IMG/VR virus record: IMGVR_UViG_3300030019_000576 | Reading direction: 5' to 3' (one strand) | Length of the DNA stretch: 64,000 bases | Source: a virus | In this document: piece after piece, positions 22,990-57,814 of the stretch | Numbering within the stretch: position 1 is the first letter of the stretch | Layout of the letters: every line of letters begins with the position of its first letter | The notes under the pieces: generated by a model | The model's database searches: none | Seen by the model: only the letters and a program-made list of their open reading frames with translations | What the model was told of the DNA's origin: nothing | Position numbers and translations under genes: made by a program

Positions 22990-23664
22990 TTATTCTAATC
23001 TTTCCCAATCTATTGGGTATTTTGATTTTAGTTCAGTCATCCACCAAACAGTTTTTACTTTAGATTTAGGTAAACGTTGACCTTTCATAAGGGTAGAACG
23101 CTTGCATACAACACCTTCTTTAACTGTTGGGTACAAACACCCAACTTTAGTCCAATCGTTGTTCTCAATTGACCATATGAAGTCTTTAGTTAACTTACCA
23201 ACGTATATTACTTCTGGTATTTCAATTTCATCAACATGTGCAAATAATTTATAAAATTCTTTTGGTTCAATATATCCTTTTTTATATAAGAATATATCAA
23301 TAAGACAAAGTTTCAATGGTTCACCTGGTACATGGAATCCACTGAATGTGTGTTCACCATACCATTCAAAAAATACTGTTATTTCTTTCACACCATTAAA
23401 AACCCCATTTTTAGAAGAATTTTTAATAAGTATTTCTTTAAGTCTTTCTTCTAAATTTGTTTTAAAATATTTAACAGCATCACCAAATTGTTCACTTGAT
23501 TCATCAACATTTTGTGTCTTAGAACCAAACATAGGGAATTCTTTTTGTTTAGGTGAAAACTTTGCACAGAAATTCTGTCCATCTATTTTATTAAATGCCC
23601 AAATTTCTTCACCCAATAAGGTACCATCGTATTTTATATTTTCAAAACTATCGTAATGTTTCAT
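22990..23664 (-). CDS. RNA ligase, Rnl2-like nucleotidyltransferase
   Basis: Motif I AFNKIDGQN (KxDG), FFEWYGE (motif III-like), EGVVCK (motif IV EGxVxK); the N-terminal HYDSFEN resembles T4 Rnl2 KYSSLEN. Confidence 0.55.
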   Translation of the reverse strand: MKHYDSFENIKYDGTLLGEEIWAFNKIDGQNFCAKFSPKQKEFPMFGSKTQNVDESSEQFGDAVKYFKTNLEERLKEILIKNSSKNGVFNGVKEITVFFEWYGEHTFSGFHVPGEPLKLCLIDIFLYKKGYIEPKEFYKLFAHVDEIEIPEVIYVGKLTKDFIWSIENNDWTKVGCLYPTVKEGVVCKRSTLMKGQRLPKSKVKTVWWMTELKSKYPIDWERLE

Positions 23665-29794: not shown

Positions 29795-30049
29795 TTATAT
29801 TAATCCGTAAAAATGGGATTTTTTAAAATTAATCATATTTACACGTATAGCATATTTAGTGTATTCATACTGTTTATTATCATCATAATCATAAATATAA
29901 ATTTTATCCCCAACAATTTTTTTTATTCTACACCTTGATTCAGTCCAAATTAATTTCGTGTATAAACCTTCACTAACACCAGACCATTTATATCTTTTAC
30001 CTTCAACTAAAACAGTACCGTCATGTAATATAATTTCTTTCATAAACAT
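29795..30049 (-). CDS. hypothetical protein
   Basis: Co-oriented ORF. Confidence 0.4.
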   Translation of the reverse strand: MFMKEIILHDGTVLVEGKRYKWSGVSEGLYTKLIWTESRCRIKKIVGDKIYIYDYDDNKQYEYTKYAIRVNMINFKKSHFYGLI

Positions 30050-30621
30050 TTATTTATTATATTTTTAAGTTCTTCTAAATCAACAATATAACTATTATCA
30101 ATCGTGTAATCAGATTTACTTTTTTTTAATTCAACATCCATTTGTGAAGATAATCTATCTTTTATTTGTTCAGCAGTAAAACCATTTCTACTTTTTAAAC
30201 GCTGTTCTACTATATCTTTATCTGCATAAATACAAATGACAGCATCAAAATTATCTTGTTTATTATGTTCAAATATTAATGCACTTTCATTAAATATAAT
30301 ATCTTCATCTTCGTGTAAATAACAAAAATGTTCAAATGCTTTTTGGATATATTTCGTAAATATACCATTTACTATATTTAATTTATCTTTATCTTTAAAT
30401 ACCAAAGACATATACTTTCTATTATATGTACCATCAGGTAAATATGCATCAGTACCAAATTCAGTAATAAGTTCACTTTTTAAATCAACATTATTGTTTG
30501 CTGCATAAGTAGCATGGTAATCAGAATAAAATACTGAATATCCTAATCCTTCTATCATTATACAAACTGTCGTTTTTCCACTACAAATCCCACCTGTTAT
30601 CGCTATCTTCTTGTTTTTCAT
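30040..30621 (-). CDS. coaE: dephospho-CoA kinase
   Basis: IAITGGICSGKTTV (CoaE P-loop), DGTYNRKYMSLVF, and C-terminal VICIYADKDIVEQRLKSRNGFTAEQIKDRLSSQ, all colinear with E. coli CoaE. Confidence 0.75.
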   Translation of the reverse strand: MKNKKIAITGGICSGKTTVCIMIEGLGYSVFYSDYHATYAANNNVDLKSELITEFGTDAYLPDGTYNRKYMSLVFKDKDKLNIVNGIFTKYIQKAFEHFCYLHEDEDIIFNESALIFEHNKQDNFDAVICIYADKDIVEQRLKSRNGFTAEQIKDRLSSQMDVELKKSKSDYTIDNSYIVDLEELKNIINKCL

Positions 30622-30926
30622 ATATTTAAATTAAATAATTATGTTGTTTAAATCGTAATTAAAATTGTCTGCAATAAAATGACATTACTAATAGATGCAT
30701 CACTTTATACACATTATAATAAAGTGATAATCACTAAAAAGTAAGTTATTAAAATGAAAAAAACGTTAAGAAAAAATGCATTAAAACAACAAAAAAGAAT
30801 TAAAAAAACATCATCAACAATTTCTAATAAATATAAAATATTATCAACTATTATATGTTTTATAATAAACAATTCTGATATAATATTAGATAATATTTCA
30901 AATATTATATCTATGATAAATTGGTT

Positions 30927-31850
30927 TTAAATTAAATATTTATCACCTTTACCATATTTTTGTAGCATCTTAATAGATGAACTACTTACATGTTCAAATT
31001 CTGAATCAGATAAGATATTAATAACCTTAATATCAGGTTTTAAATCTTTTAGATAACGATATTGTGTTTTTTCAAATTCTAAATCACTTGCATTTCTTAA
31101 TCCACGAATAAGTGTTACATCATATCCTAACCCATCAATGAAATCAGTTAGCAATCCAGTATAAAGTCCTGCTTGTCTATTTTTTAGTGTATTAGTTAAT
31201 GGTAATAGTTCATCTGACTTAGAAGTATTAATTCCACGTGCGATTATTACTTTATCAAAAATAGCTTCTGCTTTCTTCAATATATCATAATGTCCTACAT
31301 GAAATGGGTTAAAAGAACCTGCATAAACACCAATATTATATTTACGGTATTTAATATAATCAAGATATTCTTGTTTAATATTACCAAAATGCTTTTCTAA
31401 GAATTTAATTCTATTTTCTGTATATGTTTTTACATCAACAAATTGGTATTCTTTAAAAATACCATCTTCATATTTCATAAATGAATTGAAATCACCATAT
31501 AATACTGATAAATCATATTTATTCAATAGTTTAGAAGTTGGATTTACATCAATGTGATTCTTGGTAGCTAAAATTGCTTCATAAACATCAGGATAATTAA
31601 AAAATGTTTTAAAAAGTTCTGCTGACTTTTCTTCATTATCATTATTCATTGGATCATATACTATATCATGGAATACAATAGCAAGAAGTAATTCATCTGA
31701 TAATTTGTTATCATCTATTGCTTTCCCTATTAAATCCAATACATGATTCCAAGTATGGTAAAAACGTTGTGGTTCAGAATATCTTTCTTTGTAAAAATCC
31801 ACTAATCCCATTTTTTCCGAAATCAATTCTTCTATTAGTTTTATATCCAT
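30927..31850 (-). CDS. coaD: HD-domain protein fused to phosphopantetheine adenylyltransferase
   Basis: N-terminal HTWNHVLDL...VFHDIVYDP is an HD motif. The C-terminal half carries GVYAGSFNPFHVGHYDIL (HxGH), LIRGLRNASDLEFE and HVSSSSIK, colinear with E. coli CoaD (TFDPITNGHIDIV, LIRGLRAVADFEYE, ISSSLVK). Confidence 0.7.
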   Translation of the reverse strand: MDIKLIEELISEKMGLVDFYKERYSEPQRFYHTWNHVLDLIGKAIDDNKLSDELLLAIVFHDIVYDPMNNDNEEKSAELFKTFFNYPDVYEAILATKNHIDVNPTSKLLNKYDLSVLYGDFNSFMKYEDGIFKEYQFVDVKTYTENRIKFLEKHFGNIKQEYLDYIKYRKYNIGVYAGSFNPFHVGHYDILKKAEAIFDKVIIARGINTSKSDELLPLTNTLKNRQAGLYTGLLTDFIDGLGYDVTLIRGLRNASDLEFEKTQYRYLKDLKPDIKVINILSDSEFEHVSSSSIKMLQKYGKGDKYLI

Positions 31851-32404: not shown

Positions 32405-32647
32405 TCATCTTTTACCTTCTTTAAATGATTCTTTTGTCTTGTTTGAAAATGTTATTAAGTCTTCCAATGTTAAATTAAATTTATTCATTGAAAAACATTC
32501 AATAGCACCTATTAAATCTGTTAGTTCACATATTTGTAGAACTTTATCACCCTGTTCAATTGCATCAGTTAGTTCATCAATTTCTTCTTGAATCTTTGAA
32601 AATTCACCGATTACACCTTTTTTAATTTCGTTTTTATGATAACCCAT
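32405..32647 (-). CDS. MazG/HisE-like all-alpha NTP pyrophosphohydrolase (tentative)
   Basis: 80 aa with IQEEIDELTDAIE...ELTDLIGAI, matching the paired EExxE/D helical motifs of small MazG-like enzymes. Confidence 0.35.
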   Translation of the reverse strand: MGYHKNEIKKGVIGEFSKIQEEIDELTDAIEQGDKVLQICELTDLIGAIECFSMNKFNLTLEDLITFSNKTKESFKEGKR

Positions 32648-33194
32648 TTTTATATTTTTTTATTAACGTTGATAATCGTGGTTCAGCACATCCTGTTCCG
32701 TAAATCCATTTTAAGAATTCACATTCTCTTATACCATAACTTCCTAATTCGTTACCGTCAATAGTAATATCAAAACCTATTTCAGTTTGTACAACATCTA
32801 AATTTTGTTTAAAATATTGTTGAAAAAATTCGTATGATATTTTTATAATTTTTTGTAATTCTTCTTCATTTACCACATCAGTTTTTATTAATTCATTTTT
32901 AATAAAATATTGCATGTGTAAATAATCTACTGACTCATTACGAAAGCATGGTGTCGAACCTTGATAAGTTCCATGAGGAAGAAATTCTTTCAAATATAAA
33001 TATAAAAAAGATTGTTCACCGCTTGCAACTAATCGTTTATTATTAACATTTAGTTGAAATGGTGTTTTATTCTTTGGTCTTGTTATATCATCAACATATG
33101 GTGAAACCGTCCAAGGTAATTCAATACGTTGAAATCCATTTTCAGTATAATATTTTACTGAATCATCTAATAATTTGAAATCTATCATAGTCAC
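32634..33194 (-). CDS. class II aminoacyl-tRNA synthetase-like / AsnA-like catalytic-core protein (truncated)
   Basis: TPCFRNESVD matches class II motif 2 (fRxE); 186 aa, with no anticodon-binding domain. Confidence 0.35.
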   Translation of the reverse strand: MTMIDFKLLDDSVKYYTENGFQRIELPWTVSPYVDDITRPKNKTPFQLNVNNKRLVASGEQSFLYLYLKEFLPHGTYQGSTPCFRNESVDYLHMQYFIKNELIKTDVVNEEELQKIIKISYEFFQQYFKQNLDVVQTEIGFDITIDGNELGSYGIRECEFLKWIYGTGCAEPRLSTLIKKYKNGLS

Positions 33195-33396
33195 ATATTT
33201 TTTTTATTAAGAACGTTCTATATGTTGGATTACTTTTACCCAAGTAATACCACATTCTTTGTCCATTGCTTAAACTTTTCCAATATACTGAACAAAATAC
33301 CCTTACTTTCTTTTTAAGTTTTCTTGGTATTTTATTATCAGAAAATGATATTACTTTAGGTAAAGTAAAATGTTTATCTAAATCTTCGTATTTCAT
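33163..33396 (-). CDS. hypothetical protein
   Basis: Small basic ORF. Confidence 0.3.
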   Translation of the reverse strand: MKYEDLDKHFTLPKVISFSDNKIPRKLKKKVRVFCSVYWKSLSNGQRMWYYLGKSNPTYRTFLIKKICDYDRFQIIR

Positions 33397-34274
33397 TAGT
33401 TAATATATTCATCCATTAAAAATATTCCGCAAGAGCTTCCGCAATCTTGTCCTGGTGGGATATAATATTCATATTCAATATTATATTTTTTGAAGTGTTC
33501 AGCAAAAATTTCAACTTGTTTAAAGTCAGAATGTTTAGCTGGTATATTTTCTTTTTCATTATAATATAAAAACTTCACATTAAATCCTTTGTCTTTAATT
33601 AAATCAGTTAAACGTATAGCATCTTCTTCTGTATCATTTATACCATCAATTAATGCATAGTGAATTTCAACCTTATTACCCGTTTTTATTTTATAAAAAT
33701 CTGCTGCTGCTATTGTAGATTTAATATCTAATGATGCTTTCATCCATTCATTTCTTAATTCATCAGTAGTATAGTGTAATGATATATGCAATTTAACATT
33801 TAAATTTAACATATCAATTAATCTTACCATGTTAAAAAAATGTTCGTAATTATATTTTGGTAATGCAGTTGCAAATGCAAATCTTGTATTTACTTTATAT
33901 TCATTATTAATATAATTCATACTGTCAACTACTGCTTTATAATTTGTTACAGCATCACCCATACCCATGTAGCTTATTAAAAGTGTTTTTGGTTCAACCT
34001 TTAGCTTTAAATCAAGGTAGATATAATCAATACCATCTGTTATTTCATCCCAAGTTAAATTTCTTGATACAATTTTACCAATTAAATCAGTTGCAAAACA
34101 AAATTTACATGCTAAATTACATAATGTATTACATGGTACACATATAATATCTTTACCATCATTTTTATTGATATATGAAAATTCAATTATTAAATTATCT
34201 TCTGTGTAGAAAACATATTTAATAGTACTGTCAATAGTTGATTTAACTATTTTCTTTAATCTAAGTTTACCCAT
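33396..34274 (-). CDS. radical SAM methyltransferase, RlmN/Cfr family
   Basis: CVPCNTLCNLACKFCFAT aligns with RlmN CVSSQVGCALECKFCST. MGMGDAVTN aligns with MGMGEPLLN, LHISLHYTTDELR with LAISLHAPNDEIR, and C-terminal GQDCGSSCG with DDIDAACGQ (the conserved C-terminal Cys). Confidence 0.7.
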   Translation of the reverse strand: MGKLRLKKIVKSTIDSTIKYVFYTEDNLIIEFSYINKNDGKDIICVPCNTLCNLACKFCFATDLIGKIVSRNLTWDEITDGIDYIYLDLKLKVEPKTLLISYMGMGDAVTNYKAVVDSMNYINNEYKVNTRFAFATALPKYNYEHFFNMVRLIDMLNLNVKLHISLHYTTDELRNEWMKASLDIKSTIAAADFYKIKTGNKVEIHYALIDGINDTEEDAIRLTDLIKDKGFNVKFLYYNEKENIPAKHSDFKQVEIFAEHFKKYNIEYEYYIPPGQDCGSSCGIFLMDEYIN

Positions 34275-34317: not shown

Positions 34318-34686
34318 TTATTTTGTATATTTTACAAGATTATCCCAATCGCTACTATCTTTTTCTTCCATCCAAACATGTATTATTTTATCGTTAAAAA
34401 TATTATACTTTTTAACAGTTTCTTTTATGAAATCTGATATTTCATCGTTTGTCATTTTGCATTCATAATAAAGTTTTTCCCATAAATCTTCAATAACCCA
34501 CATAGTTAAAGTTGATTCATAATATTGAATCATTATATTATTATCAACACCAAAATATTTATTACTAAGTTGATTTTTAACTTTTATCTTACCTATACCA
34601 AAAGTATAATCAAGAAAAATCCGTTGTGCAAGGGTTAATCTTGATTCCTTTATTCGATGTATTTTATCTAAAATACTATTTGACAT
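34318..34686 (-). CDS. DKIxxIK-SRLS family protein
   Basis: MSNSILDKIHRIKESRLTLAQR. Confidence 0.45.
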   Translation of the reverse strand: MSNSILDKIHRIKESRLTLAQRIFLDYTFGIGKIKVKNQLSNKYFGVDNNIMIQYYESTLTMWVIEDLWEKLYYECKMTNDEISDFIKETVKKYNIFNDKIIHVWMEEKDSSDWDNLVKYTK

Positions 34687-35080
34687 AGTTGTGTTTCCTT
34701 TCTATACTATTAAGATGTCTTATAATATGTTTCCATGATTTGTTTTCCTTATGTCTTATAATGATATCCGAATCTTTTATATCGTAATTTTTATTAAAAA
34801 AATCATTTATAACTTTTTTTAATTCAGATGCATTCTTTATAGGAAGTATTAAATTACTTGCTGAATTACCCCAAAATAGTTCATTATCCAAATGTAGTAT
34901 AGTTTTAAGTACAGTCCTTTCTATTTCAAATAGTATACGACCATCCTTTATATAAAATAATGATGTAGGGTATTGTTTATGTCTAAATGGTGTAATATTA
35001 ATACATAAACCAATTAAATATCGTTCATTATCACTTAATCTACTATATTTTATAGTTCTTATTTTATCTAACATTTTCAT
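34676..35080 (-). CDS. DKIxxIK-SRLS family protein
   Basis: MKMLDKIRTIKYSRLSDNER. Confidence 0.45.
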   Translation of the reverse strand: MKMLDKIRTIKYSRLSDNERYLIGLCINITPFRHKQYPTSLFYIKDGRILFEIERTVLKTILHLDNELFWGNSASNLILPIKNASELKKVINDFFNKNYDIKDSDIIIRHKENKSWKHIIRHLNSIERKHNYVK

Positions 35081-35411
35081 ATTGTTTTAAATTATCCCAC
35101 CAATCTTGTTGACTATCTGAAATAACATCTATTTTATATCCTAAAATATTTAAATGAACATGAAACATTTTATAAATAAAATCTTCAATATCCCAATCAT
35201 TCTTAACACTTACAATCATACACCATAACGTCCTATTAACCCATACTGATTTACCTTTCGTGTTTTGTTCAAATACACAACCACGTGTGTTATACCACCG
35301 AATTATATTATCACTCACTTGATGGGGTTTAATACAATCAATAGCATCAATAAAAGTTCTTTCTTCTTTTGATAATCTACTATATTTAATTTTTTTTATT
35401 TTATCTTTCAT
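35064..35411 (-). CDS. DKIxxIK-SRLS family protein
   Basis: MKDKIKKIKYSRLSKEER. Confidence 0.45.
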   Translation of the reverse strand: MKDKIKKIKYSRLSKEERTFIDAIDCIKPHQVSDNIIRWYNTRGCVFEQNTKGKSVWVNRTLWCMIVSVKNDWDIEDFIYKMFHVHLNILGYKIDVISDSQQDWWDNLKQYENVR

Positions 35412-35722
35412 ATATCTTTCAATGAAAATTCAGTTATATGAATTTTTAAATATCGACTAATAGTTTTCCATATTAAAGATTCTGTTTCATATGAATTTAA
35501 TCTTAATTTTTGACTTAAATTATAAAAAAGTTCCGTACTAAATACAATTGAACCATAATCATTAAATAGAAACTTTGTAAAGTAAAAAAGTTTTTTACTA
35601 TTTTTTGTATAATAAAAAAAACCATTTTCTTCAACTATTTTAACATCATCAAAAATGATGCATTTCATCATTTCTTTTGGTGTAAGTCTACTGTATTTAA
35701 TTTGTCTTATTTTATCTTTCAT
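35408..35722 (-). CDS. DKIxxIK-SRLS family protein
   Basis: MKDKIRQIKYSRLTPKEM. Confidence 0.45.
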   Translation of the reverse strand: MKDKIRQIKYSRLTPKEMMKCIIFDDVKIVEENGFFYYTKNSKKLFYFTKFLFNDYGSIVFSTELFYNLSQKLRLNSYETESLIWKTISRYLKIHITEFSLKDI

Positions 35723-36069
35723 AAATATTCTATTGTGAAAAAGGTCATCCTAATTTTAAAATGCAAAGCAATAGTTTTCATAATTAATAATTCTGTTTCA
35801 TTTGTATCTAAATGTAATTTTTTACGTAATCTATAAAAAAGATTATGACTAAATACAATTTCACCATATTTTGGATCATCAGTAAATGCAAATTTTCTAA
35901 AGTAAAAAATATTTATATTATTTCGTTTATAATTTATACTATTTCGTTTATAATATATTCTTCCACCTTCTTTATTTGTTTCCACACCATCCACAATGAA
36001 ATATCTCATGATTTCTTTTGGTGTCATTCTACTATATTTGATTCTTTGTATTTTATCTTTTATGTTCAT
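35719..36069 (-). CDS. DKIxxIK-SRLS family protein
   Basis: MNIKDKIQRIKYSRMTPKEI. Confidence 0.45.
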   Translation of the reverse strand: MNIKDKIQRIKYSRMTPKEIMRYFIVDGVETNKEGGRIYYKRNSINYKRNNINIFYFRKFAFTDDPKYGEIVFSHNLFYRLRKKLHLDTNETELLIMKTIALHFKIRMTFFTIEYL

Positions 36070-36392
36070 TCTTGCATTATTTTACAAACTATTTCATAAT
36101 CATACCAATCAAAGTAATCTATGCACATTTTTTTTGCATAGATTAATGCATCTTCTTTTTTATATCCAAATGTTTTAACTAATGGGTATATAACATTAGT
36201 ATAATTAATAGAAACATATTTATTTTTTTTATCTACTTGAAATATAGTTTCACCTTCACTGTTTTCATAAAAATAGTCACTTCTCGGTAAAAAAAGTTTA
36301 TGTGATTTTACATTATCAAATAAATCAATAATCCATTTATCAGAACCTGATAAACGTAATCTTTTAATATGTCTTATTTTATCTTTAATCAT
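36066..36392 (-). CDS. DKIxxIK-SRLS family protein
   Basis: MIKDKIRHIKRLRLSGSDK. Confidence 0.45.
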   Translation of the reverse strand: MIKDKIRHIKRLRLSGSDKWIIDLFDNVKSHKLFLPRSDYFYENSEGETIFQVDKKNKYVSINYTNVIYPLVKTFGYKKEDALIYAKKMCIDYFDWYDYEIVCKIMQE

Positions 36393-37820: not shown

Positions 37821-39674
37821 TTATTTCTTTGCTGTTGGTGTTACTTTTTCTACTTCTTTCTTATCTTGGATATATTTCATTAATTCTATACCAATAAGAC
37901 TATCAACACCAGAACCACCACCTTGACCACCGTTAATCAAGATTTCAGGAATGATTTTTACACCATTTTTACCAATTTCTTCAATAACTTTAAGTTTTCC
38001 AAAATTTTCAGCACCCATTGCAGTTACTTGACCTTTATATGATTCAGCGTTAGCCTTACCAATTGCTTCAATCTTACCAGCTTCGGCTGCACCCATCATT
38101 TGAATTTTAGCAGCATCTGCTTCTGCATTTACTTTAGTAGCCTTTGCGTTAGCAGCAGCTTTAATTTCAACAGATTTAGCTTCACCCTCTGATTGCTTAA
38201 CAGCAGCTTCTGCTTCACGTTGTGAAATTTCTACTTGTTGTTGAGCAGCAACCATTTTAGGTTGAATATCAGCTAATGCTTTCGCAGTTTCCAACATCTT
38301 CTTTTGGTCTTGTGCTTTTGTTTGTGTTTCGAAAGTAATTTCTTCTTCCTGTGCAATCTTACGGTCAGTTAAAGTCTTCATAAGTGATTCAGGTGGAACG
38401 ATATCACCGATAAGCGTATCTACTGCCTTTACATTATATTCATCCAATACCTTTGTAATTTCAACTTTTGCAGCATTTTGACGTTCTTGACGTGTAGACA
38501 AGAAAGCAATAACATCTGAATCTTGTGCTGAATTACGGAAGTAGTTACCGATTGTTGGTTCAAGTACTTGTGATACAAGGTTTTGCATTGAACCGAAACG
38601 TGCAATTACTTTTGGTGCTTCTACTGATGGAATGTGAATAATTTGTGATACATCCAAATTGAATGGGAAACCATCTTTTGAACGTACTGTAATAGTACTC
38701 AAATTCTTATCAAGATTGTGTGATTCACTACGTGCATTTGCCCAATTAAGTACTAAGTTTGTAGTAGGAACGATTTCAATACGTTGTGTATAAGTATTAA
38801 TTGCATATTTTCCTGGATCAAGTGTTTGTAACCACACCCCTTTATTACCTTTTTCTACAATGTTACCATGTTTAAATCCATCACCAGTGACATCTTTACC
38901 ATCACCACCTACATATGAAATAACAACACCAGCGGTACCAATTGGAATTTCTGTCATTGGTCGTTTTTCAATCTGAATTGCCCAAGGACTTAATGTATAA
39001 GAACCCGCTTGAATAACTTGAATTTGAAGACCACGTTGACCACCATTTTCTAAAAACTTATCGAAGTCTTGGAAGTTATTGTGACCACTAATTTCAGAAC
39101 CTGCAATAGAACCTGTTGTAAGTGGTGTACCATCCAATGTAGTAATAATACCAATTGTACCATCTTCAATAGTTGTAATATCTGCTAAGAATACATCAAA
39201 CAATAGTGAATTAATACGATATACACCGTTATTAAGATAACCAACTTGTTTACCACGAGAACCGTTGTTGTTCAAAAATGCACGTGCATTTTGATAATTA
39301 TCAGATTCTACATGTCGTGCTAAAATAAAACCTACTTCAAGAATTTTACCATCTTTAGCTGATACCATACCAATTTTTCCTTTCGGGATGTCAGTAAATG
39401 CAGCTAAATCAATTTTGTACTGCCATACCCAATAACCCCATCCCAAGAAACCTGGTGCTAATGTATCTGCTTGAAACCCTGCTTCACCATTTAAGGCGAT
39501 AATCTTACCATCTGGTAATGAACGTTCTTTACCAAATAGGACGAATTTTTTCGTAACTAATCCAATTCGGTTTTCTGGAATGATAATCATTCCGAATAGT
39601 ACACGCAAAATTTGCTTGTAAAAAATAATTGCTAACAAAGGGAGCAACACCCACCAATAACTTAAAATTTCCAT
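37821..39674 (-). CDS. SPFH/band-7 flotillin-like membrane protein (YqiK-like)
   Basis: N-terminal TM, an SPFH core (IIPENRIGLVTKKF...) and a long Ala/Glu/Lys-rich coiled-coil C-terminus (AEADAAKIQMMGAAEAGKIEAIGKANAESY). Local GC is clearly higher than in the flanks. Confidence 0.7.
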   Translation of the reverse strand: MEILSYWWVLLPLLAIIFYKQILRVLFGMIIIPENRIGLVTKKFVLFGKERSLPDGKIIALNGEAGFQADTLAPGFLGWGYWVWQYKIDLAAFTDIPKGKIGMVSAKDGKILEVGFILARHVESDNYQNARAFLNNNGSRGKQVGYLNNGVYRINSLLFDVFLADITTIEDGTIGIITTLDGTPLTTGSIAGSEISGHNNFQDFDKFLENGGQRGLQIQVIQAGSYTLSPWAIQIEKRPMTEIPIGTAGVVISYVGGDGKDVTGDGFKHGNIVEKGNKGVWLQTLDPGKYAINTYTQRIEIVPTTNLVLNWANARSESHNLDKNLSTITVRSKDGFPFNLDVSQIIHIPSVEAPKVIARFGSMQNLVSQVLEPTIGNYFRNSAQDSDVIAFLSTRQERQNAAKVEITKVLDEYNVKAVDTLIGDIVPPESLMKTLTDRKIAQEEEITFETQTKAQDQKKMLETAKALADIQPKMVAAQQQVEISQREAEAAVKQSEGEAKSVEIKAAANAKATKVNAEADAAKIQMMGAAEAGKIEAIGKANAESYKGQVTAMGAENFGKLKVIEEIGKNGVKIIPEILINGGQGGGSGVDSLIGIELMKYIQDKKEVEKVTPTAKK

Positions 39675-41938: not shown

Positions 41939-42400
41939 TCAAACTACCAAATGTTTATCCAATAATAATTCATTTAAATTTTTATAAAATGGTATTTTAT
42001 AGTCATCACATACTATTTTAACGTTACCACTTCTCCAATATTCATCAGGGCAGCATACGATTAACTTACCACTTGATGCTTGAAGACCTAATTCTAATAA
42101 TGATATAGGACTTTTACTATTTGGTAGAAAATTCATTATAATAATGTCTGAATATTCCATTGCATTTAATTCCCATTTTACTTGACCATAAAATTCTGCA
42201 TTTTCAATTTTTTGTTCCCATGAATCATCCCATACATCCCTACGTGGATTATATAATACTACATTCGGAAAACTACTAAAGTGTTCTTCAACATTTTTCT
42301 GCCAATTTTCAGATTCACCTTGGTCAATGGTACCTGCTAAAAAGATAGCAAATGTGCCATATGGTTTCTGTATTGGAATTGGTGGTTTATAACTTGTCAT
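41939..42400 (-). CDS. nucleoside 2-deoxyribosyltransferase-like (SLOG superfamily) protein, tentative
   Basis: GTFAIFLAGTIDQG resembles the YLAGP nucleotide-binding loop of NDT/DUF4406 proteins. Confidence 0.35.
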   Translation of the reverse strand: MTSYKPPIPIQKPYGTFAIFLAGTIDQGESENWQKNVEEHFSSFPNVVLYNPRRDVWDDSWEQKIENAEFYGQVKWELNAMEYSDIIIMNFLPNSKSPISLLELGLQASSGKLIVCCPDEYWRSGNVKIVCDDYKIPFYKNLNELLLDKHLVV

Positions 42401-43480: not shown

Positions 43481-43774
43481 TTAATGTTTCCAAATATATT
43501 TACTTAATACGAATTTCATCTTTCTATCAAAATCGGGATCATTTTCTAATTCTTTCAACATACCATAATGATATGATGTATCTAATGAATTATCATCGGG
43601 TTCACCGTTACGTAGAATCATTTGATAGTTATCATTTACATAAGAATCTTCATCTTCATATGTATTTATTTCATCAATATCTTCATGTATTCTTTCTAAT
43701 ACTTTTACTACTTCACGATAAAACATAACCTTTTTAAGTTTTTTATTAATCATTGAATTTTTTTTGAAAGTCAT
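43481..43774 (-). CDS. hypothetical protein
   Basis: Co-oriented ORF. Confidence 0.4.
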   Translation of the reverse strand: MTFKKNSMINKKLKKVMFYREVVKVLERIHEDIDEINTYEDEDSYVNDNYQMILRNGEPDDNSLDTSYHYGMLKELENDPDFDRKMKFVLSKYIWKH

Positions 43775-44255
43775 TAAAATCTTCGCAAAAAATAATCAAA
43801 TTTATTTGTTCGGATGTCATAAAATCACCCATATGTTTAAATAAATTAAACCATTGTTCACCGAATAAGTAAATATTTGGTTTTACAATCATTTTACGAA
43901 CTTCATCTAAGAGTAAAAATAATTCAGCAAGTGTTCCAATACCACCTCTTTGAATTACAAAGGTTTCGCTTTCAGCATTTAAATATCCTAATCTATCATA
44001 AATATCATTACATATAATAGTTTCAGTTAAAAATTCATTACCTTTTGTGAATCCAAAAGACTTACATGTATATCCAAATGCTTGTCCATCTGCTTCTGTT
44101 GCACCCTTTGATACAGCTTCCATTAACCCACGATAACCACCATTTTTAACTATAAAACCCTTATTAGCTAAGAATCCACCTATTAGAATACTATCATTAT
44201 ATTCCTTTGTTGTTCTATCATTGATAGCACCACCGAAAAAAGTTGCGTATTTCAT
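43746..44255 (-). CDS. LOG-family (Lonely Guy / TIGR00730) putative nucleotide N-glycosidase
   Basis: GGYRGLMEAVSKGA (the GGGxGxMgA motif) and QRGGIGTLAELF (the PGGxGTxxE motif). Confidence 0.65.
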   Translation of the reverse strand: MKYATFFGGAINDRTTKEYNDSILIGGFLANKGFIVKNGGYRGLMEAVSKGATEADGQAFGYTCKSFGFTKGNEFLTETIICNDIYDRLGYLNAESETFVIQRGGIGTLAELFLLLDEVRKMIVKPNIYLFGEQWFNLFKHMGDFMTSEQINLIIFCEDFNDFQKKFND

Positions 44256-45505: not shown

Positions 45506-46477
45506 TTAATTATTACTAATAAATTTATCAACAATATCTACACATTGTTTAAATCTGTCTTCAAAATCAGTTCCTTTAATGTAAGAAATATTCTTATCTT
45601 TAAAGTTATTGTATAGCAATTCGTGGAATTTTGAACGATTTGGTTCACCCATCCGACTACCATCATCAACAAAAGGTACATCATTCCATAGGAATAAGTA
45701 TAAATCAAATTTATTTGCATCTTCTACTTCCTTAGTGATATTTTCTGGGTGTTTATCAAATAGAAAGTTACTATAACAAACAGTTGTTATTAAATCAGTA
45801 TCAGAAAATAATATTTTATCCCCTAAGTTTTTTTCAATTTCTTCTGCTTGACCTGTAATTATTAGATTTATCATATCTGTATCACATATTTTTGTATCTG
45901 AACACACATCACGACCTACTTCTTTTGCAAACTTAAAGTTATAGTGATTAGATAATAATTCTGTCATAGTTGATTTACCAGTACTTTCAGTACCACATAT
46001 ACATATTTTTTTAGTATAATATGATTTAACTGATTTTGGTATAAAATTCCAATATTTTAATGGTGTTTCCCTTATTGATGTAGATGAAATCGGTGTGTTT
46101 GTTCTTTTTTCATCGTATTGCATATGTTTAATATTCATAAATCCACCAACATAATCACCATATTTTTCACTTGTGAAAATTATATTCACATCAGGAAATA
46201 AATCTGTTAAATATAAAGACCAAACCCTTGATATTTCAATATTTGATACAGATGTATTTTCCATATGTGATGTATCCTTATGAATTATTTTTATATTAGG
46301 TATATCTTTAAATTCTTCTTGTAACCATTTATATCTAAGTTCGCTTGGAATTTCTTCTTTATCGTGTGAGCATAATAATACATAAAGAAAATCAGAATTT
46401 GATAATCCAAAGTTTATTAAAGAAAGATGTCCATTATGTAAAGGACAAAAACTACCTAATACTAATCCTGTTCTCAT
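45506..46477 (-). CDS. nadR: bifunctional NMN adenylyltransferase / ribosylnicotinamide kinase (NadR type, lacking the HTH domain)
   Basis: GLVLGSFCPLHNGH (HxGH). ISSTSIRETPLKYWNFIPKSVKSYY...ICGTESTGKST aligns with E. coli NadR ISGAQIRENPFRYWEYIPTEVKPFF...ILGGESSGKST. A Walker B DTD is present. Confidence 0.85.
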   Translation of the reverse strand: MRTGLVLGSFCPLHNGHLSLINFGLSNSDFLYVLLCSHDKEEIPSELRYKWLQEEFKDIPNIKIIHKDTSHMENTSVSNIEISRVWSLYLTDLFPDVNIIFTSEKYGDYVGGFMNIKHMQYDEKRTNTPISSTSIRETPLKYWNFIPKSVKSYYTKKICICGTESTGKSTMTELLSNHYNFKFAKEVGRDVCSDTKICDTDMINLIITGQAEEIEKNLGDKILFSDTDLITTVCYSNFLFDKHPENITKEVEDANKFDLYLFLWNDVPFVDDGSRMGEPNRSKFHELLYNNFKDKNISYIKGTDFEDRFKQCVDIVDKFISNN

Positions 46478-46478
46478 T

Positions 46479-47024
46479 TTACGTTGTTTTTAAATGTTTT
46501 TTCCATTCTTTATAACCCGCAATTGATAATATTATTAATAATAAATTATACCCTGCGATGTAATACATATCTTGATGAAGACATAATATAATTAACATTA
46601 CATTATTTATCATAAAAATCCACCAAGATTCAATAACCTTTTTAACTAATAAATATGTTGCAAGTAGTGCGATAATACCACCTATACCATCAAGATATAA
46701 TAAATTATTATTAGTTGTTTTAGTTAATAATGTAAAGATAATACCAATCACCATGCATATTCCTATGCATAGTGCTGATTTAGTATATCCTATTTTTGTA
46801 ACTTCTTTTGTATCAACTTCATTCCATTTTACCCAACCATACGCACATTGACCAACTGAAACAAGTTGTAATACCATCTGTGAATAAAAGTTTACATTAT
46901 AAAAGTAATAGGTTAATAGTACTGCACTAATTAATCCAAATACCCAACAAAGTAGATTTTGTTTAATTGTTAAAAACACACTTACTATTCCAATAATGAC
47001 TGAAATTAATTCAATATTTTTCAT
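46479..47024 (-). CDS. pnuC: nicotinamide riboside transporter
   Basis: CAYGWVKW and C-terminal ESWWIFMINNVM...IAGYNLLLIILSIAGYKEW align with PnuC (NIYGWYAW, ENWLLWVIINV...). Its start overlaps the receptor stop (TAATG). Confidence 0.8.
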   Translation of the reverse strand: MKNIELISVIIGIVSVFLTIKQNLLCWVFGLISAVLLTYYFYNVNFYSQMVLQLVSVGQCAYGWVKWNEVDTKEVTKIGYTKSALCIGICMVIGIIFTLLTKTTNNNLLYLDGIGGIIALLATYLLVKKVIESWWIFMINNVMLIILCLHQDMYYIAGYNLLLIILSIAGYKEWKKHLKTT

Positions 47025-48997
47025 TAAAATTTAACTTTAACTGTTGTATAAAAATTAAGTGGAGCACCTATAAAATAAGCATTTTCCCCATTTGAAACAT
47101 ACCCACCCGTAAAGTATTTAGTGTTAGTTAAATTATTACCTTGAATTGATAAGTTTACATTTTTAGTTAATTGATAACCAATTTTTGCATTGAATAATAC
47201 ATAACCAGGAATTGTTTCAGTATTTGCAGGATTAATAAATGCATCCGATAAATATCGACCAGATACGTTTATAAAGAGCTTACCGTTGTTGTATTCAATA
47301 TTCTGATTAACTATTACATTTGGTGTATAAAGTGCGTGATATGATGTGTTATCACCTTTAATTTCACTATTCATTAATGTTGTATTATTATTTATAGATA
47401 AATTTTTTGTAAGATTACATGAAAAATCAAATTCTGCACCATAACGTGAACTTTTATCTACATCTGTCATTAATGGTAAACTATTTAACCCCATTGCACC
47501 TAATTGTGTAATTTCATTATTAAAGTCCATATAAAACAAATTACTTTGAAGTTTCACAACACTATTTGATAAGTTATAACCAAGTTCATAGTCAATAACA
47601 CTTTCAGGTTTAATTATAAATAAATCAACTAAATTATCATTCCCACCGAACATGTCACTTCTTGTAGGTTCACGGTGTGATTGACCAACCGAAAAATACA
47701 AAGATTCATTATTTGTAATTGTGTATGTCACACCCCCACGTGGATTTAAAAACAACCAATTAATTCGTTTCATTGGATTATCACCTATGTAAGTGAAGTT
47801 AACATTACGTAATTGTAAGTCAGTAAATAAACTAAATTTATTTATATCATAATTTGCTTTGATGTAAAAACTTCCTTCGTTTTTATATCCAGTATTTGTA
47901 TATAAGGAATCAATCTGAACAGAACCAGGGTGTGTCATATTTCCACTGTGTGTTCGATTATATGTATTAAGCTGAAATCCAGTGTTAAATTTTAAATCAT
48001 TATATTTTATAAGATAATTTGATGTGAACCCAACGAAATTAGAATTTAATCCAAAATTAAGCAAGTCAGTTGGTGCAGTAAACATACCCCATTTACCATC
48101 TAAATGATTGTAAAAGAAAGTATTTGTTAGAACATAATTACTTGATTCACTATGAACATATTGTAACTGTACAAAACTTTGATTAAAATCATCATTTTCA
48201 CCTTTAGGGTTATAATTTGTGCGAGGGTCTTTTAATATATCAGATTCTGATACTGCATACCATGCCATTTGATTAATTGATTTACCCGAAAATGCAGTCA
48301 ACTTTAATACATCCTTATTACCATAGTATCCACCCGAAAGAAATGCTGAATAACCACTACCACTTGAATTATATTTATACCCATCACTTGTATATTCTGA
48401 TACACTACCAAATAACGCAAATTTATTAATTAAACCCGTACCAAAATTAACATTAAGTGATTGTGTTCCAAAACTACCCGATGTAAAACTTGCATTAAAA
48501 CCTTTATCTAAACCTGTTTTACTTTCAAAATTAATACTACCACCATATGAAGATGTACCATTTGCTGATGTACCAATACCACGTTGGATTTGCATAGAAT
48601 TAATATTCATTGCGAAATTAGGAAAATTGCTAAAATATACCCCTTGGTCTTCACTTTCATTTAACGGAATACCATTTAATGTCATATTTATACGTGTTTG
48701 GTCAATTCCACGAATTCGAAATGATACATATCCATTAGGTTGACCACCATCAGATTGTGATGTAATTGATGGTGTTTTATCTAAAATATACACCATTTCT
48801 TGACCACTGTATTGCTTATCAATGTCAACACTATTGACAACTTTTTGGGAAATAGGTGTTTTAATATCTGGTCGAATACCTACAACTTCCACGTCATTTA
48901 ACTTTACTACTTTTACAGTATCTTTTGATACTTGCGAATAAGAGGTAAACACATTAAATAATGCGATAACCAACACAAAAAATTTAATTTTCTTCAT
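47024..48997 (-). CDS. TonB-dependent outer-membrane receptor
   Basis: Signal peptide MKKIKFFVLVIALFNVFTSYSQ, an N-terminal plug region, a long beta-barrel with alternating aromatic strands and a C-terminal ...VKVKF (terminal Phe). Confidence 0.7.
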   Translation of the reverse strand: MKKIKFFVLVIALFNVFTSYSQVSKDTVKVVKLNDVEVVGIRPDIKTPISQKVVNSVDIDKQYSGQEMVYILDKTPSITSQSDGGQPNGYVSFRIRGIDQTRINMTLNGIPLNESEDQGVYFSNFPNFAMNINSMQIQRGIGTSANGTSSYGGSINFESKTGLDKGFNASFTSGSFGTQSLNVNFGTGLINKFALFGSVSEYTSDGYKYNSSGSGYSAFLSGGYYGNKDVLKLTAFSGKSINQMAWYAVSESDILKDPRTNYNPKGENDDFNQSFVQLQYVHSESSNYVLTNTFFYNHLDGKWGMFTAPTDLLNFGLNSNFVGFTSNYLIKYNDLKFNTGFQLNTYNRTHSGNMTHPGSVQIDSLYTNTGYKNEGSFYIKANYDINKFSLFTDLQLRNVNFTYIGDNPMKRINWLFLNPRGGVTYTITNNESLYFSVGQSHREPTRSDMFGGNDNLVDLFIIKPESVIDYELGYNLSNSVVKLQSNLFYMDFNNEITQLGAMGLNSLPLMTDVDKSSRYGAEFDFSCNLTKNLSINNNTTLMNSEIKGDNTSYHALYTPNVIVNQNIEYNNGKLFINVSGRYLSDAFINPANTETIPGYVLFNAKIGYQLTKNVNLSIQGNNLTNTKYFTGGYVSNGENAYFIGAPLNFYTTVKVKF

Positions 48998-57785: not shown

Positions 57786-57814
57786 AATTTATTTGTTTTA
57801 AAATTGTTTTTATA

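Follow-up and report, generated by a model that had tools for sequence, protein, structure and literature searches.

A short-form RlmN/Cfr-like radical SAM protein encoded by a phage lacks the RNA-anchoring domain of its cellular relatives and may act on deoxypyrimidine nucleotides

The window analyzed here, a 64,000-nucleotide stretch of viral DNA (IMG/VR record IMGVR_UViG_3300030019_000576), carries on its minus strand a group of overlapping or abutting genes that includes one for a radical SAM protein:

32405..32647, minus strand: MazG/PRA-PH-type NTP pyrophosphohydrolase-like protein, 80 aa (PF01503, 26.6 bits against a cutoff of 21.3)
32634..33194, minus strand: minimal class II aaRS-like catalytic core, 186 aa, part of a separate cassette (PHROG 4806, E 2e-38)
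32679..32702, minus strand: motif 3 of the aaRS-like protein (R172 invariant)
32937..32951, minus strand: motif 2 of the aaRS-like protein, CFRNE (R84 and E86 invariant)
33163..33396, minus strand: basic 77-aa ORF (orf77), whose ATG overlaps the radical SAM stop by 1 nt (TAATG)
33396..34274, minus strand: short-form RlmN/Cfr-like radical SAM protein, 292 aa, without an N-terminal HhH2 domain (ORF with ATG start)

The window is phage-like, as the initial annotation had supposed, with a primase, a virion-protein PHROG and a phage RNA-ligase PHROG, and it also codes for IF-3, two RNA ligases and an AAA_33 kinase. The radical SAM gene stands alone and is packed into a co-directional operon, a tight arrangement that is usual all through the window. 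Searches of the window for tRNAs and Rfam matches returned none, and a promoter and terminator scan of this 25% GC DNA gave counts equal to the shuffled expectation.

When compared with the RlmN profile TIGR00048, the radical SAM protein aligned without collapse (E 1.2e-34), although its 119.8 bits fall below the equivalog cutoff of 290. The remaining profiles likewise scored under their cutoffs, both for the RlmN equivalog (TIGR00048/PRK11194), where NF008396 gave 81.8 bits against 633, and for Cfr (NF000424, 90.2 against 530; TIGR04432, 85.7 against 550; NF011024, 89.4 against 468). A phmmer search of PDB sequences returned RlmN and Cfr exclusively (E 2e-18 to 1e-14), and the AF2 model (pLDDT 91.4) shows a beta-sheet extension followed by a partial (beta/alpha)6 barrel, a fold nearest to RlmN/Cfr among radical SAM enzymes. 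The best 11 Foldseek matches in the PDB were all RlmN/Cfr (E 2e-21 to 3e-13, TM 0.68-0.83), with PFL-AE as the next family at E 3e-8. No rival radical SAM family fits better across the profile, PDB-sequence and fold searches, since PFL-AE lies far behind and QueE is absent. These results uphold the family claim of the initial annotation at the level of superfamily homology and not at that of an RlmN or Cfr equivalog. The protein very probably belongs to the RlmN/Cfr superfamily (class A radical SAM methyl synthases) and shares its chemistry, and it is a relative of RlmN and Cfr that is orthologous to neither.

The motif blocks and structural parts of the protein map to the window as follows:

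34134..34274, minus strand: residues 1-47, four-stranded beta-sheet extension before the radical SAM barrel (AF2 and alignment)
34140..34142, minus strand: Cys45, putative resolving Cys, equivalent to RlmN C118 and Cfr C105 (alignment)
34098..34121, minus strand: C52-x3-C56-x2-C59, [4Fe-4S]/SAM radical cluster motif (alignment)
33942..33968, minus strand: M103-G-M-G-D-A-V-T-N111, the 'MGMGE..N' SAM-binding block (alignment)
33753..33794, minus strand: K161-L-H163-I-S-L-H167...D171-E-L-R174 block (alignment)
33657..33671, minus strand: V-E203-I-H-Y (alignment)
33426..33458, minus strand: P273-P274-G275...C282-G283, C-terminal loop with the methyl-carrier Cys (alignment)

All four RlmN/Cfr hallmark blocks that had been claimed are present in the 292-aa ORF, and the AF2 strands of the extension comprise residues 5-11, 17-23, 29-35 and 41-47. 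RlmN C118 and Cfr C105 are the cysteines that resolve the covalent enzyme-substrate adduct; C45 precedes the cluster motif by 7 residues, exactly as does C118 in E. coli RlmN, and this position is Cys in 91% and Val in 7% of short-family representatives. The cluster cysteines C52, C56 and C59 show no variation, either in alignment A1 or in any of the 129 sequences compared. C282, found within 'SSCG', aligns with RlmN C355 and Cfr C338, and 97% of the short family have Cys at this position. By these alignments the window protein keeps all residues required for RlmN chemistry. It shares with RlmN, its best profile, sequence and fold match (TIGR00048; PDB 3RFA, 5HR6, 6FZ6), the beta extension and partial TIM-barrel core, the CX3CX2C motif, the MGMG block, the methyl-carrier Cys (C282 = C355) and the resolving Cys (C45 = C118), and the same ping-pong methyl-synthase chemistry would therefore be expected. 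Cfr (NF000424, TIGR04432; PDB 9P0P) has the superfamily, fold and catalytic cysteines in common with it as well.

RlmN is a dual-specificity radical SAM methyl synthase that produces m2A2503 in 23S rRNA and m2A37 in tRNA, and Cfr is a 23S rRNA m8A2503 methyltransferase that confers PhLOPSA resistance. The protein is shorter than these cellular enzymes, as had been noted from the sequence, because the N-terminal domain is absent, and its match spans TIGR00048 positions 74-341 of 355. Alignment with E. coli RlmN, Cfr and Cfr(C), which defines the missing stretch, leaves it ~64-85 N-terminal residues short of these proteins; it begins directly with the beta extension, before which RlmN and Cfr carry ~60-85 extra residues (~75-85 aa in the comparison with RlmN) that form the HhH2 domain. 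In RlmN and Cfr this domain anchors RNA tertiary structure and is crucial for RNA binding (PMC13001441).

The residues that contact RNA in these enzymes are also largely exchanged, in a mapping built on an alignment of ~25% identity between the window protein and RlmN. Using the RNA-clamp residues known from the Cfr-rRNA cryo-EM structure (PMC13001441), we found Cfr S103 replaced by I43, S151 by L99 and S187 by A133. The Arg that is invariant in cellular enzymes (Cfr R184, RlmN R206) becomes V, I or T in the short family and is T130 here. Cfr Y252, which stacks on RNA (PMC13001441), corresponds to E203, a Glu in 90% of the short family where RlmN has T or S, and Cfr T325 corresponds to E269 (78% Glu). 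Of the four hydroxyls that clamp the phosphates, three are thus replaced, and the cleft gains two conserved Glu. The RlmN RNA contacts are similarly altered (R114 to K41, T116 to I43, N172 to L99, R206 to T130 and T209 to A133), as are the further positions T276 (E203) and T346-R347 (P273-P274). K161 (95%) and H163 (81%) are peculiar to the short family and occupy the positions of Cfr N208 and T210, which contact the base 3' of the target (PMC13001441); L99 and S101, also family-specific, lie just upstream of the MGMG block. Among the seven residues conserved in Cfr that discriminate it (Y97, W101, S103, S151, S153, Q329 and F330; PMC12887959), the window protein has K37, K41, I43, L99, S101, P273 and P274, so that the S153 equivalent alone is shared. 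The 'PPG' of the C-terminal loop stands in for 'QFG' of Cfr, where Q329 and F330 have the role described in PMC12887959, and for 'TRG' of RlmN. Core net charge and pI, considered as a proxy for RNA binding, did not discriminate, E. coli RlmN and Cfr having cores no less acidic than those of the short forms.

With the RNA-anchoring N-domain gone and the clamp residues replaced, the case for methylation of 23S A2503 or tRNA A37 by the phage enzyme, or for resistance of the Cfr type, is weakened. Substrate recognition is likely to be non-canonical and unlike that for A2503 or A37, and there is no basis to predict antibiotic resistance from the window gene, which scores ~86-90 bits against Cfr cutoffs of 468-550. 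Short-form proteins are nonetheless named 'RlmN', 'Cfr' or '23S rRNA (adenine2503-C2)-methyltransferase' in databases; read literally, such names would wrongly cast genes of phages as modifying ribosomes or conferring antibiotic resistance.

The window protein belongs to a much wider group. The ~280-310 aa form without the N-domain is that of the whole clade, and the protein carries the full short-form signature (K/R41-I/V43-C45, L99-S101, H163, E203, P273-P274-G275 and C282), which sets it apart from both cellular families at the same positions:

Short form: K41-I43-C45 / L99-S101 / H163 / E203 / P273-P274
RlmN: R-T-C / N-V / A / S,T / x-x
Cfr: W-S-C / S-S / T,A / Y,F / Q-F

About nine in ten of the best 150 representatives (50% identity) lack the N-domain, and full-length forms appear among them only from E ~4e-29 and weaker. 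One split in a neighbor-joining tree parts all 13 N-domain-bearing RlmN/Cfr sequences from all 116 short forms, with the window protein on the short side, opposite RlmN. The clade consists mostly of proteins from large or huge phages, with relatives on viral contigs of 100-676 kb, together with a branch in small-genome bacteria; matches among species-representative genomes were confined to seven MAG contigs (Patescibacteria and unclassified) whose origin, phage or cell, is ambiguous. PHROG 27142, described as 'Fe-S-cluster redox domain-containing', is matched along the whole protein (E 2.8e-18), and GenBank phage proteins of this type, among them those of Tunturi_5, Phabio, Psa21, D6 and ANB28, are annotated 'ribosomal RNA large subunit methyltransferase N'. 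Tunturi_5 gp170 is 36% identical to the window protein and has the full signature, whereas the Phabio, Vibrio and Stenotrophomonas phage proteins form divergent subclades missing parts of it, the Phabio protein lacking the resolving Cys. A DNA-level search of 50,697 phage records found no near relative. Searches of the literature found no functional study of the PHROG 27142 family and nothing relevant on phage RlmN/Cfr-like enzymes, on radical SAM proteins with dCMP deaminases or on a radical SAM thymidylate synthase. Taken together, sequence comparison delineates a large, coherent and previously uncharacterized clade that has shed the RNA-binding apparatus while keeping the residues for the rare two-cysteine chemistry of methyl synthases.

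Gene fusion ties this clade into deoxypyrimidine metabolism. At least 40 clusters (90% identity) join the radical SAM protein to a C-terminal dCMP deaminase; some hold 85-489 member sequences, and their contigs reach 913,761 bp. An independent fusion places a dCMP deaminase at the N-terminus (P0166), another adds a Nuc_deoxyrib_tr domain (P0228), and two triple fusions (P0418 and P0419) combine the radical SAM protein, a deaminase-like domain without the HAE/PCxxC residues and a dUTPase. The fused domains are true dCMP deaminases by phmmer against the PDB, with DCTD at 6e-52 and cyanophage dCD at 4e-39 compared with ~1e-5 for TadA. This rules out the tRNA A34 deaminase TadA, an identity that would have favored a role at the anticodon loop. 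All annotated fusions are to deoxynucleotide enzymes, and none to an RNA-binding or RNA-modifying domain was found. One fusion (P0414) overlaps a downstream thymidylate-kinase-family gene in a cluster that also contains a second Tmk, HMUDK_hel, a ThyA-family gene and a formyltransferase.

Adjacent genes in the main clade repeat this pattern. Locus L026, whose protein is 53% identical to the window protein, has the order MazG-like, dCMP deaminase, radical SAM; in L045 (42% identical) a P-loop kinase gene is followed by a dCMP deaminase gene overlapping the radical SAM gene, an 84-aa ORF and a D12 Dam methyltransferase gene. Of 57 non-redundant groups, 7 have a dCMP deaminase no farther than 8 kb from the radical SAM gene, and in 4-5 the two are fused or adjacent (binomial P 3e-4 to 0.016 at a per-locus chance of 1-2.6%). 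At least one neighbor of dNTP metabolism occurs in 18 of the 57 groups, and the other 39, the window's own included, have none within 8 kb. All-versus-all ORF clustering over 60 loci revealed no universal partner, the commonest neighbor families being DUF723-like (8 of 46 groups) and Thg1-like (7 of 46). Seeds for Thg1-like, Tmk, ThyA-family, dCMP deaminase and P-loop kinase proteins gave no hits in the window, which itself therefore contributes no pathway partners. Given that the large deaminase-fusion clade is just ~31% identical to the window protein, the signature residues in common and the main-clade cases of adjacency are what a transfer of function relies on. About six lineages have ThyX or ThyA-family genes close to the radical SAM gene, which points to co-occurrence with thymidylate synthases and not to their replacement.

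We propose the following course for the reaction. A first SAM would methylate C282, and a second would be cleaved reductively to a 5'-deoxyadenosyl radical that takes a hydrogen from the S-methyl group; the resulting thiomethylene radical would add to an sp2 carbon of the nucleobase, and disulfide formation by C45 would resolve the adduct and leave a C-methyl group behind. The target may be a deoxypyrimidine mononucleotide instead of rRNA or tRNA, because the family is fused or adjacent to producers of dUMP (dCMP deaminase and dUTPase), to a deoxyribosyltransferase/dNMP-hydrolase-like domain and to Tmk-like kinases, the last of which would phosphorylate the methylated product. In its simplest version the conversion would be dUMP to dTMP, or alternatively dCMP to 5-methyl-dCMP. 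To our knowledge, all class A enzymes characterized so far methylate adenine C2 or C8 in RNA, and a nucleotide substrate would be without precedent. From comparative genomics, we give roughly even odds that the gene encodes a radical-SAM C-methylase of a deoxypyrimidine nucleotide, possibly forming dTMP from dUMP; that it serves dTMP synthesis specifically is a considerably more tentative suggestion.

Equally tentative is the broader conjecture that the short-form family is a SAM-dependent, folate-independent pyrimidine-dNMP C5-methylase and hence a third, mechanistically unrelated route to thymidylate, acting on dUMP directly or by way of dCMP, 5-methyl-dCMP and subsequent deamination. Large phages and some small-genome anaerobic bacteria would use such a route, re-tooled from an RNA-methylating ancestor. 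The fusions of dCMP deaminase with the radical SAM protein, those of the radical SAM protein with an (inactive) deaminase and dUTPase, and the overlapping thymidylate-kinase-family gene could then line up a path from dCMP or dUTP through dUMP and dTMP to dTDP. ThyA, ThyX and the phage dNMP-modifying pathways (for example T4 dCTPase, dCMP hydroxymethylase and dNMP kinase) offer a functional analogy only. The gene company is alike (dCMP deaminase, dUTPase, MazG-type NTP pyrophosphatase, Tmk-like or dNMP kinases, RNR and NrdD), and the proposed net reaction, like that of ThyA and ThyX, is the C-methylation of a pyrimidine dNMP; however, there is no relation in sequence or fold, and the methyl donor would be SAM, by way of a radical, and not methylene-tetrahydrofolate. 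If the enzyme does act on nucleotides, class A radical SAM methylation would reach from RNA adenines to free nucleotides and could reveal a new route to thymidylate or to a modified pyrimidine, with a bearing on phage DNA modification, on nucleotide auxotrophy in reduced genomes and on antifolate-independent supply of dTMP.

A serious though less probable alternative is that the protein is a minimal RNA adenine C-methyltransferase (m2A as by RlmN, or m8A as by Cfr) with A37 of host or phage tRNA, or A2503 of 23S rRNA, as its target; it would recognize local loop features only and tune translation or shield the anticodon loop or ribosome from nucleases or toxins. The characterized homologs and folds nearest to it are all RlmN or Cfr, it conserves both mechanistic cysteines, and the IF-3, two RNA ligases and AAA_33 kinase of the window would fit a translation-related role. 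In phages ANB28 and Phabio a tRNA cluster contains or borders the divergent short homolog, 17 and 9 tRNAs are found nearby in loci L063 and L008, and a Thg1-type tRNA enzyme occurs within 8 kb in 7 of 57 groups. Within 8 kb, ~14 of 53 loci have tRNA genes, but this proportion, about a quarter, is not obviously above what tRNA clusters of large phages would give and makes no convincing link, and the window has no tRNAs or Rfam matches of its own. Against an RNA substrate stand the clade-wide loss of the HhH2 domain and the altered clamp and cleft described above (three hydroxyls and the invariant Arg replaced, two Glu gained), as well as genomic associations that are with deoxynucleotide enzymes and not with RNA genes, the fused deaminases being dCMP deaminases and not TadA. 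Hosts, moreover, generally carry their own RlmN. Were this reading correct, the protein would represent a minimal RlmN-type enzyme and a phage strategy to edit the translation apparatus. The loss of RNA-specific parts would also suit an enzyme that C-methylates a base in polymer DNA, or a purine deoxynucleotide, to yield an unusual methylated phage base that blocks restriction. The D12 N6-adenine DNA methyltransferase gene two genes downstream in L045, with one small ORF between, NPPY-motif or methyltransferase-like ORFs downstream in L026 and L074, and the placement of the gene among replication and nucleotide genes in Tunturi_5, L008, L009 and L080 are compatible with this idea. Such methyltransferase adjacency is nevertheless limited to 3-4 of 57 groups, and the dCMP deaminase, dUTPase and NDT-like partners and the Tmk-like neighbor act on mononucleotides, specifically pyrimidines. 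On chemical grounds C2- or C8-methyladenine is expected to disturb Watson-Crick pairing, and we know of no base of this type in phage DNA. We therefore regard methylation of DNA or of a purine deoxynucleotide as improbable, and a deoxypyrimidine mononucleotide remains our preferred substrate.

The initial annotation had further joined the radical SAM gene with its aaRS-like and MazG-like neighbors into one RNA/nucleotide-modification unit. Both neighbors answer to their descriptions. The aaRS-like protein (AF2 pLDDT 92) finds the catalytic domains of PylRS and SerRS as its best Foldseek matches (E 5e-11, TM ~0.7) and has the invariant motif residues, yet it consists of the core only, without an anticodon- or tRNA-binding domain, and scores under the cutoffs of pheS (13.7 against 237), serS (12.1 against 302) and Pfam tRNA-synt_2d (14.7 against 19.8); a pairwise alignment with E. 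coli HisRS was uninformative. The MazG-like protein, placed by PF01503, also matches PHROG 6408 (E 6e-28), and the metal-binding motifs EEIDE and ELTD (EExxE...ExxD) are visible in its sequence. Profile searches gave no family hits for orf77, which has a homolog in a single other lineage, ~2 kb from the radical SAM gene there, and is no conserved partner; its identity as a split-off N-terminal RNA-binding domain was rejected on the absence of family hits and on this one non-adjacent homolog. The four ORFs overlap or abut in the window and must be co-transcribed, the MazG-like gene overlapping the aaRS-like gene by 14 nt, and their order is identical in four independent assemblies of the phage, but tight packing is the norm here. 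A joint function is, moreover, contradicted by synteny, since the 8 kb on either side of the radical SAM gene contain neither an aaRS-like gene nor a MazG-like gene of the window's type in any of 59 related loci. In L026 and L022 the radical SAM gene does have a MazG-like gene of another PF01503 subfamily two genes away; with the family linked as a whole to deoxynucleotide enzymes, this leaves a weak echo of the nucleotide part of the earlier proposal, while the unit as proposed is very unlikely. The aaRS-like family (at least 2311 homologs; 276 phage records) is spread far more widely than co-occurrence with the radical SAM gene would suggest, and in four of four unrelated phages (LR745206, phi92, CcrColossus and Vibrio phage 2.275.O) its gene is adjacent to the MazG-like gene, in either order; none of the four has a radical SAM gene close by. 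The aaRS-like and MazG-like genes thus form a widespread, independently conserved cassette of their own.

Translation of the minus-strand gene recovered all four RlmN/Cfr motif blocks that the initial annotation had read from the DNA, and these blocks are therefore real; the window as a whole has a GC content of ~25% and is coded almost entirely on the minus strand.

33396..34274, minus strand: radical SAM (rSAM) open reading frame, 292 aa
C52-x3-C56-x2-C59: cluster motif of the protein
Residues 103-111: MGMGDAVTN
Residues 161-174: KLHISLH...DELR
C282: cysteine in the C-terminal SSCG
C45: cysteine 7 residues upstream of the cluster motif

The RlmN alignment also held in the full profile search, which the initial annotation had named as the place where it might collapse: TIGR00048 (RlmN) was the top match (E 1.2e-34) and four Cfr and RlmN models came next, whereas PFL-AE reached only E 2e-3 and the list of 14 families with E up to 0.1 contained no QueE model. 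A phmmer query of all PDB sequences returned RlmN and Cfr chains only, and the top 11 Foldseek matches to the AlphaFold model (pLDDT 91.4) were RlmN or Cfr (TM 0.68-0.83), with PFL-AE the next family at an E-value weaker by at least five orders of magnitude. Together, the profile, PDB-sequence and fold searches show that reading the protein as an RlmN/Cfr relative was right.

At 119.8 where the RlmN cutoff is 290, and at about 90 where the Cfr cutoffs are 530-550, the profile scores indicate that the window protein is an orthologue of neither. The TIGR00048 match starts at profile position 74, and when aligned to E. coli RlmN, S. aureus Cfr and Cfr(C) the protein lacks the entire N-terminal domain (~64-85 aa), while the beta-sheet extension and barrel are retained in the AlphaFold model. 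Cryo-EM of Cfr cross-linked to rRNA places this HhH2 domain as the anchor at the junction of H90, H91 and H92, and a positive patch on it is crucial to RNA binding in Cfr and RlmN alike (PMC13001441). We mapped the rRNA-contact residues of Cfr (PMC13001441) and the residues discriminating Cfr from RlmN (PMC12887959) onto an alignment of ~25% identity, in which most mapped columns adjoin invariant motifs.

Substrate-cleft residues of Cfr or RlmN and their counterparts in the short family, which lacks the HhH2 domain
Cfr S103, S151, S187, gripping the phosphate 3' of the target (PMC13001441): I43, L99, A133, conserved
Cfr S153, the fourth phosphate-holding serine: kept as S101
Cfr R184, equivalent to RlmN R206: V, I or T
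Cfr W101 / RlmN R114, inserting into the U-turn: K41
Cfr Y252, RNA stacking: E203, 90% Glu
Cfr T325, 2'-OH binding: E269, 78% Glu
Cfr N208 and T210: K161 (95%) and H163 (81%)
Cfr Q329-F330 (RlmN T-R): P273-P274

The R184/R206 column is Arg in all 11 cellular RlmN-type sequences and both Cfr sequences. As read from this alignment, the short family retains its catalytic machinery and has a systematically changed polymer-gripping surface. With sub-cutoff scores, no RNA-anchoring domain and a remodelled cleft, the proposed methylation of A2503 or A37 and Cfr-like resistance are left unsupported.

A word-indexed search with a limit of E <= 1e-10 returned 286 relatives, almost all 285-300 aa long and many on contigs of 100-614 kb, and an exhaustive phmmer search of 1.84 billion cluster representatives returned 1088 at E <= 1e-10, of which 79 reached E <= 1e-30. 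In about nine in ten of the best 150 phmmer matches the alignment begins at the match's own residues ~3-15, so these too lack the N-domain; full-length cellular forms enter only from E about 4e-29. The short-form signature in a 129-sequence alignment is K41, I43, C45 / L99, S101 / H163 / E203 / P273, P274, G275 / C282, where cellular RlmN has R-T-C / N-V / A / S,T / x-x-G and Cfr has W-S-C / S-S / T,A / Y,F / Q-F-G. A neighbour-joining tree gave a single split between all 13 N-domain-bearing sequences (RlmN, Cfr) and all 116 short forms, which is indicative only because the tree carries no bootstrap support. IMG/VR contributed 51 loci on viral contigs up to 676 kb. In GenBank, homologues labelled 'Fe-S cluster redox domain' or 'RlmN' occur in Tunturi_5 (36% identity), Phabio, Psa21, D6 and in Vibrio and Stenotrophomonas phages, among others; we found no functional study of these phage homologues in the searchable literature. 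The gene belongs to a short-form clade of class A radical SAM methyl synthases that is uncharacterised and mis-annotated. The position of the resolving cysteine (C45) is Val in about 7% of short-family representatives and Tyr in Phabio (L013 3001..3891); since the C118A change in RlmN traps the covalent enzyme-substrate adduct, such natural variants may follow a different course or turn over only once. Phage contig L019, a relative of the window's phage, carries at 11563..12119 a tRNA-Met and a predicted tmRNA gene (tag peptide end ...VAFAA), ~3 kb away from its own RlmN-like gene.

When the neighbouring ORFs were clustered without bias, no partner common to all loci emerged. Domain fusions were more informative, several relatives being joined to nucleotide enzymes: P0166 carries an N-terminal and P0221 a C-terminal dCMP_cyt_deam_1 domain, and P0228 a Nuc_deoxyrib_tr domain. 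The fused deaminases are genuine dCMP deaminases (human DCTD E 6e-52, cyanophage S-TIM5-type dCD 4e-39, T4 Cd 7e-27); TadA reached only ~1e-5, and the tRNA-editing interpretation was therefore rejected. With P0221 as query the C-terminal fusion recurred in at least 40 distinct 90%-identity clusters (485-517 aa), some of which contain 85-489 sequences; the contigs reach 913,761 bp. P0418 and P0419 (670 aa) are triple fusions with an added dUTPase domain, and the HAE and PCxxC residues are gone from their deaminase domains; dCMP deaminase and dUTPase are the two dUMP-producing enzymes. Within the main clade, to which the window protein belongs, locus L026 (53% identical to the window protein) encodes, in order, a MazG-like protein (PF01503), dCMP deaminase, radical SAM protein and NPPY-motif ORF, and L045 (42%) a P-loop kinase, a small ORF and a dCMP deaminase overlapping the radical SAM gene, followed by an 84-aa ORF and a D12 N6-adenine DNA methyltransferase. 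A dCMP deaminase lies within 8 kb in 7 of 57 non-redundant groups and is fused or abutting in 4-5 of 57 (binomial P 3e-4 to 0.016 for a 1-2.6% per-locus chance, optimistic because genomes are organised in modules). At least one dNTP-metabolism neighbour occurs in 18 of the 57 groups and a Thg1-type tRNA enzyme in 7, and about 14 of 53 loci have tRNAs within 8 kb. P0414, named 'Cfr' at NCBI, overlaps a downstream thymidylate-kinase-family gene, with a second Tmk, HMUDK_hel, a ThyA-family gene and a formyltransferase upstream. P0398 (914-kb contig) and P0221 are surrounded by housekeeping genes, so the family has a cellular branch too; other members of their subclade have phage-like contexts. 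On a 'Lachnospiraceae' MAG contig (L084 5040..12242; also L085), an rSAM-dCMP-deaminase fusion clusters with AMP-binding/PP-binding carrier proteins, two thymidylate-kinase-family genes, HMUDK_hel (5-hmU DNA kinase-like), a ThyA-family gene and a formyltransferase, which looks like modified-pyrimidine biosynthesis in a cellular or prophage context.

It is established that the protein has class A radical SAM architecture with both cysteines, no RNA-anchoring domain and a remodelled cleft, and that members of its family are fused or adjacent to deoxypyrimidine-nucleotide enzymes. From comparative genomics, we consider it about an even prospect that the short family targets a deoxypyrimidine at the nucleotide level. 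RlmN ping-pong chemistry would then methylate a deoxypyrimidine mononucleotide at an sp2 carbon: SAM would methylate Cys282 to Cys282-S-CH3, the 5'-deoxyadenosyl radical would abstract hydrogen, the resulting radical would add to the substrate, and Cys45 would resolve the adduct via a disulfide. The simplest reading of deaminase or dUTPase, then radical SAM protein, then Tmk would be dUMP to dTMP; alternatively, dCMP may be methylated to 5-methyl-dCMP prior to deamination. Thymidylate synthesis specifically, which is one part of the nucleotide-level reading, is rather unlikely overall; ThyX or ThyA-family genes lie near the rSAM gene in about six lineages, which argues against simple replacement of thymidylate synthase. 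To our knowledge, the proposed activity has no precedent; the window locus, like most loci, lacks neighbours of deoxynucleotide metabolism, and identity between the window protein and the large fusion clade is only ~31%. An RNA target (tRNA or rRNA) is somewhat unlikely but a serious rival, the window's IF-3 and RNA ligases keeping a translation-linked role in contention, and a DNA-polymer or purine-nucleotide target is improbable. That the clade acts on deoxynucleotides is a testable and potentially important hypothesis.

The initial annotation had also suggested that the gene forms one module with its aaRS-like and MazG-like neighbours, an arrangement compatible with any of these targets. 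The rSAM gene, a 77-aa ORF and the two neighbours overlap or abut in the window (TAATG; 14-nt overlap), and the order repeats in four assemblies of the same phage. However, neither neighbour had a homologue (for MazG, of the window type) within 8 kb of the rSAM gene in any of 59 related loci; individual contexts are wholly different (terminase, RNR, NrdD/dUTPase, recombinase). Four unrelated phages (635-kb phage LR745206, phi92 gp196/gp197, CcrColossus and Vibrio phage 2.275.O) carry the pair side by side, in one order or the other, and none has a radical SAM gene near it. The pair is therefore a separate cassette; the three-gene module fails on synteny and is highly improbable. In phi92 the pair adjoins a YqeY-like gene and RNR. 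The individual assignments were borne out: the aaRS-like protein (family of at least 2311 members) is a minimal class II core with a PylRS/SerRS-like fold and invariant motif 2 and motif 3 arginines, and its neighbour passes PF01503. The conserved cassette (window 32405..33194, minus; L067, L068, L069, L070) joins the 186-aa core to an 80-aa MazG/PRA-PH-like protein across phi92-like, Caulobacter jumbo, Vibrio jumbo, Acinetobacter and huge phages (276 phage records, at least 2311 proteins).

Directly upstream of the rSAM gene, six tandem paralogous ORFs of 104-134 aa (34318..36392, minus) all begin with a DKIxxIK(Y)SRL(S/T) motif; the one tested had no family match, and related loci had no homologues. 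The window also encodes a contiguous NAD-salvage/uptake set (45506..48997, minus).

45506..46477, minus strand: NadR-like NMN adenylyltransferase/ribosylnicotinamide kinase
46479..47024, minus strand: PnuC NMN transporter
47024..48997, minus strand: TonB-dependent receptor with plug domain

Phages do not usually encode an outer-membrane receptor, and its presence suggests a host that is Gram-negative, possibly of the Bacteroidota. In this phage-like genome a full-length IF-3 homologue lies at 1605..2132 (minus; IF3_N E 1.5e-24, IF3_C E 1.1e-29), and two RNA-ligase-family proteins, one with an HNH-like N-terminus (PHROG 24030, E 1e-103), and an AAA_33 kinase form a possible RNA-repair set (61760..62707 and 22990..23664, minus; 5642..6118, plus). 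The last two steps of CoA biosynthesis are phage-encoded at 30040..31850 (minus) by CoaE (TIGR00152, 110.9 bits against a cutoff of 65.6) and a 307-aa protein in which an HD phosphohydrolase-like N-terminus is fused to a CoaD-like pantetheine-phosphate adenylyltransferase domain. The window has two more radical SAM proteins, which belong to other families and reach no curated cutoff: a 296-aa viperin/NrdG/QueE-like protein with Fer4_12 (49996..50886, minus) and a 392-aa SPASM/NirJ-like protein (59436..60614, minus; PHROG 7293, E 6.5e-65). Genes for a nucleoside 2-deoxyribosyltransferase-like protein (PF15891, E 1e-30; same broad superfamily as the P0228 fused domain), a LOG/SLOG 'lysine decarboxylase-like' protein and a microbial-type PARG (41939..42400, 43746..44255 and 51333..52055, minus), which process nucleotides or ADP-ribose, may relate to counter-defence. 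Cell-like auxiliary genes (20..874, plus; 8110..8973 and 57105..58879, minus; 54294..55430, plus; 37821..39674, minus) encode a hybrid histidine-kinase ATPase/response-regulator protein, a sigma-70 family factor, ClpP, full-length DnaJ, an ankyrin-repeat protein and a 617-aa SPFH/Band-7 protein, the last in the window's only GC-elevated stretch (34%).
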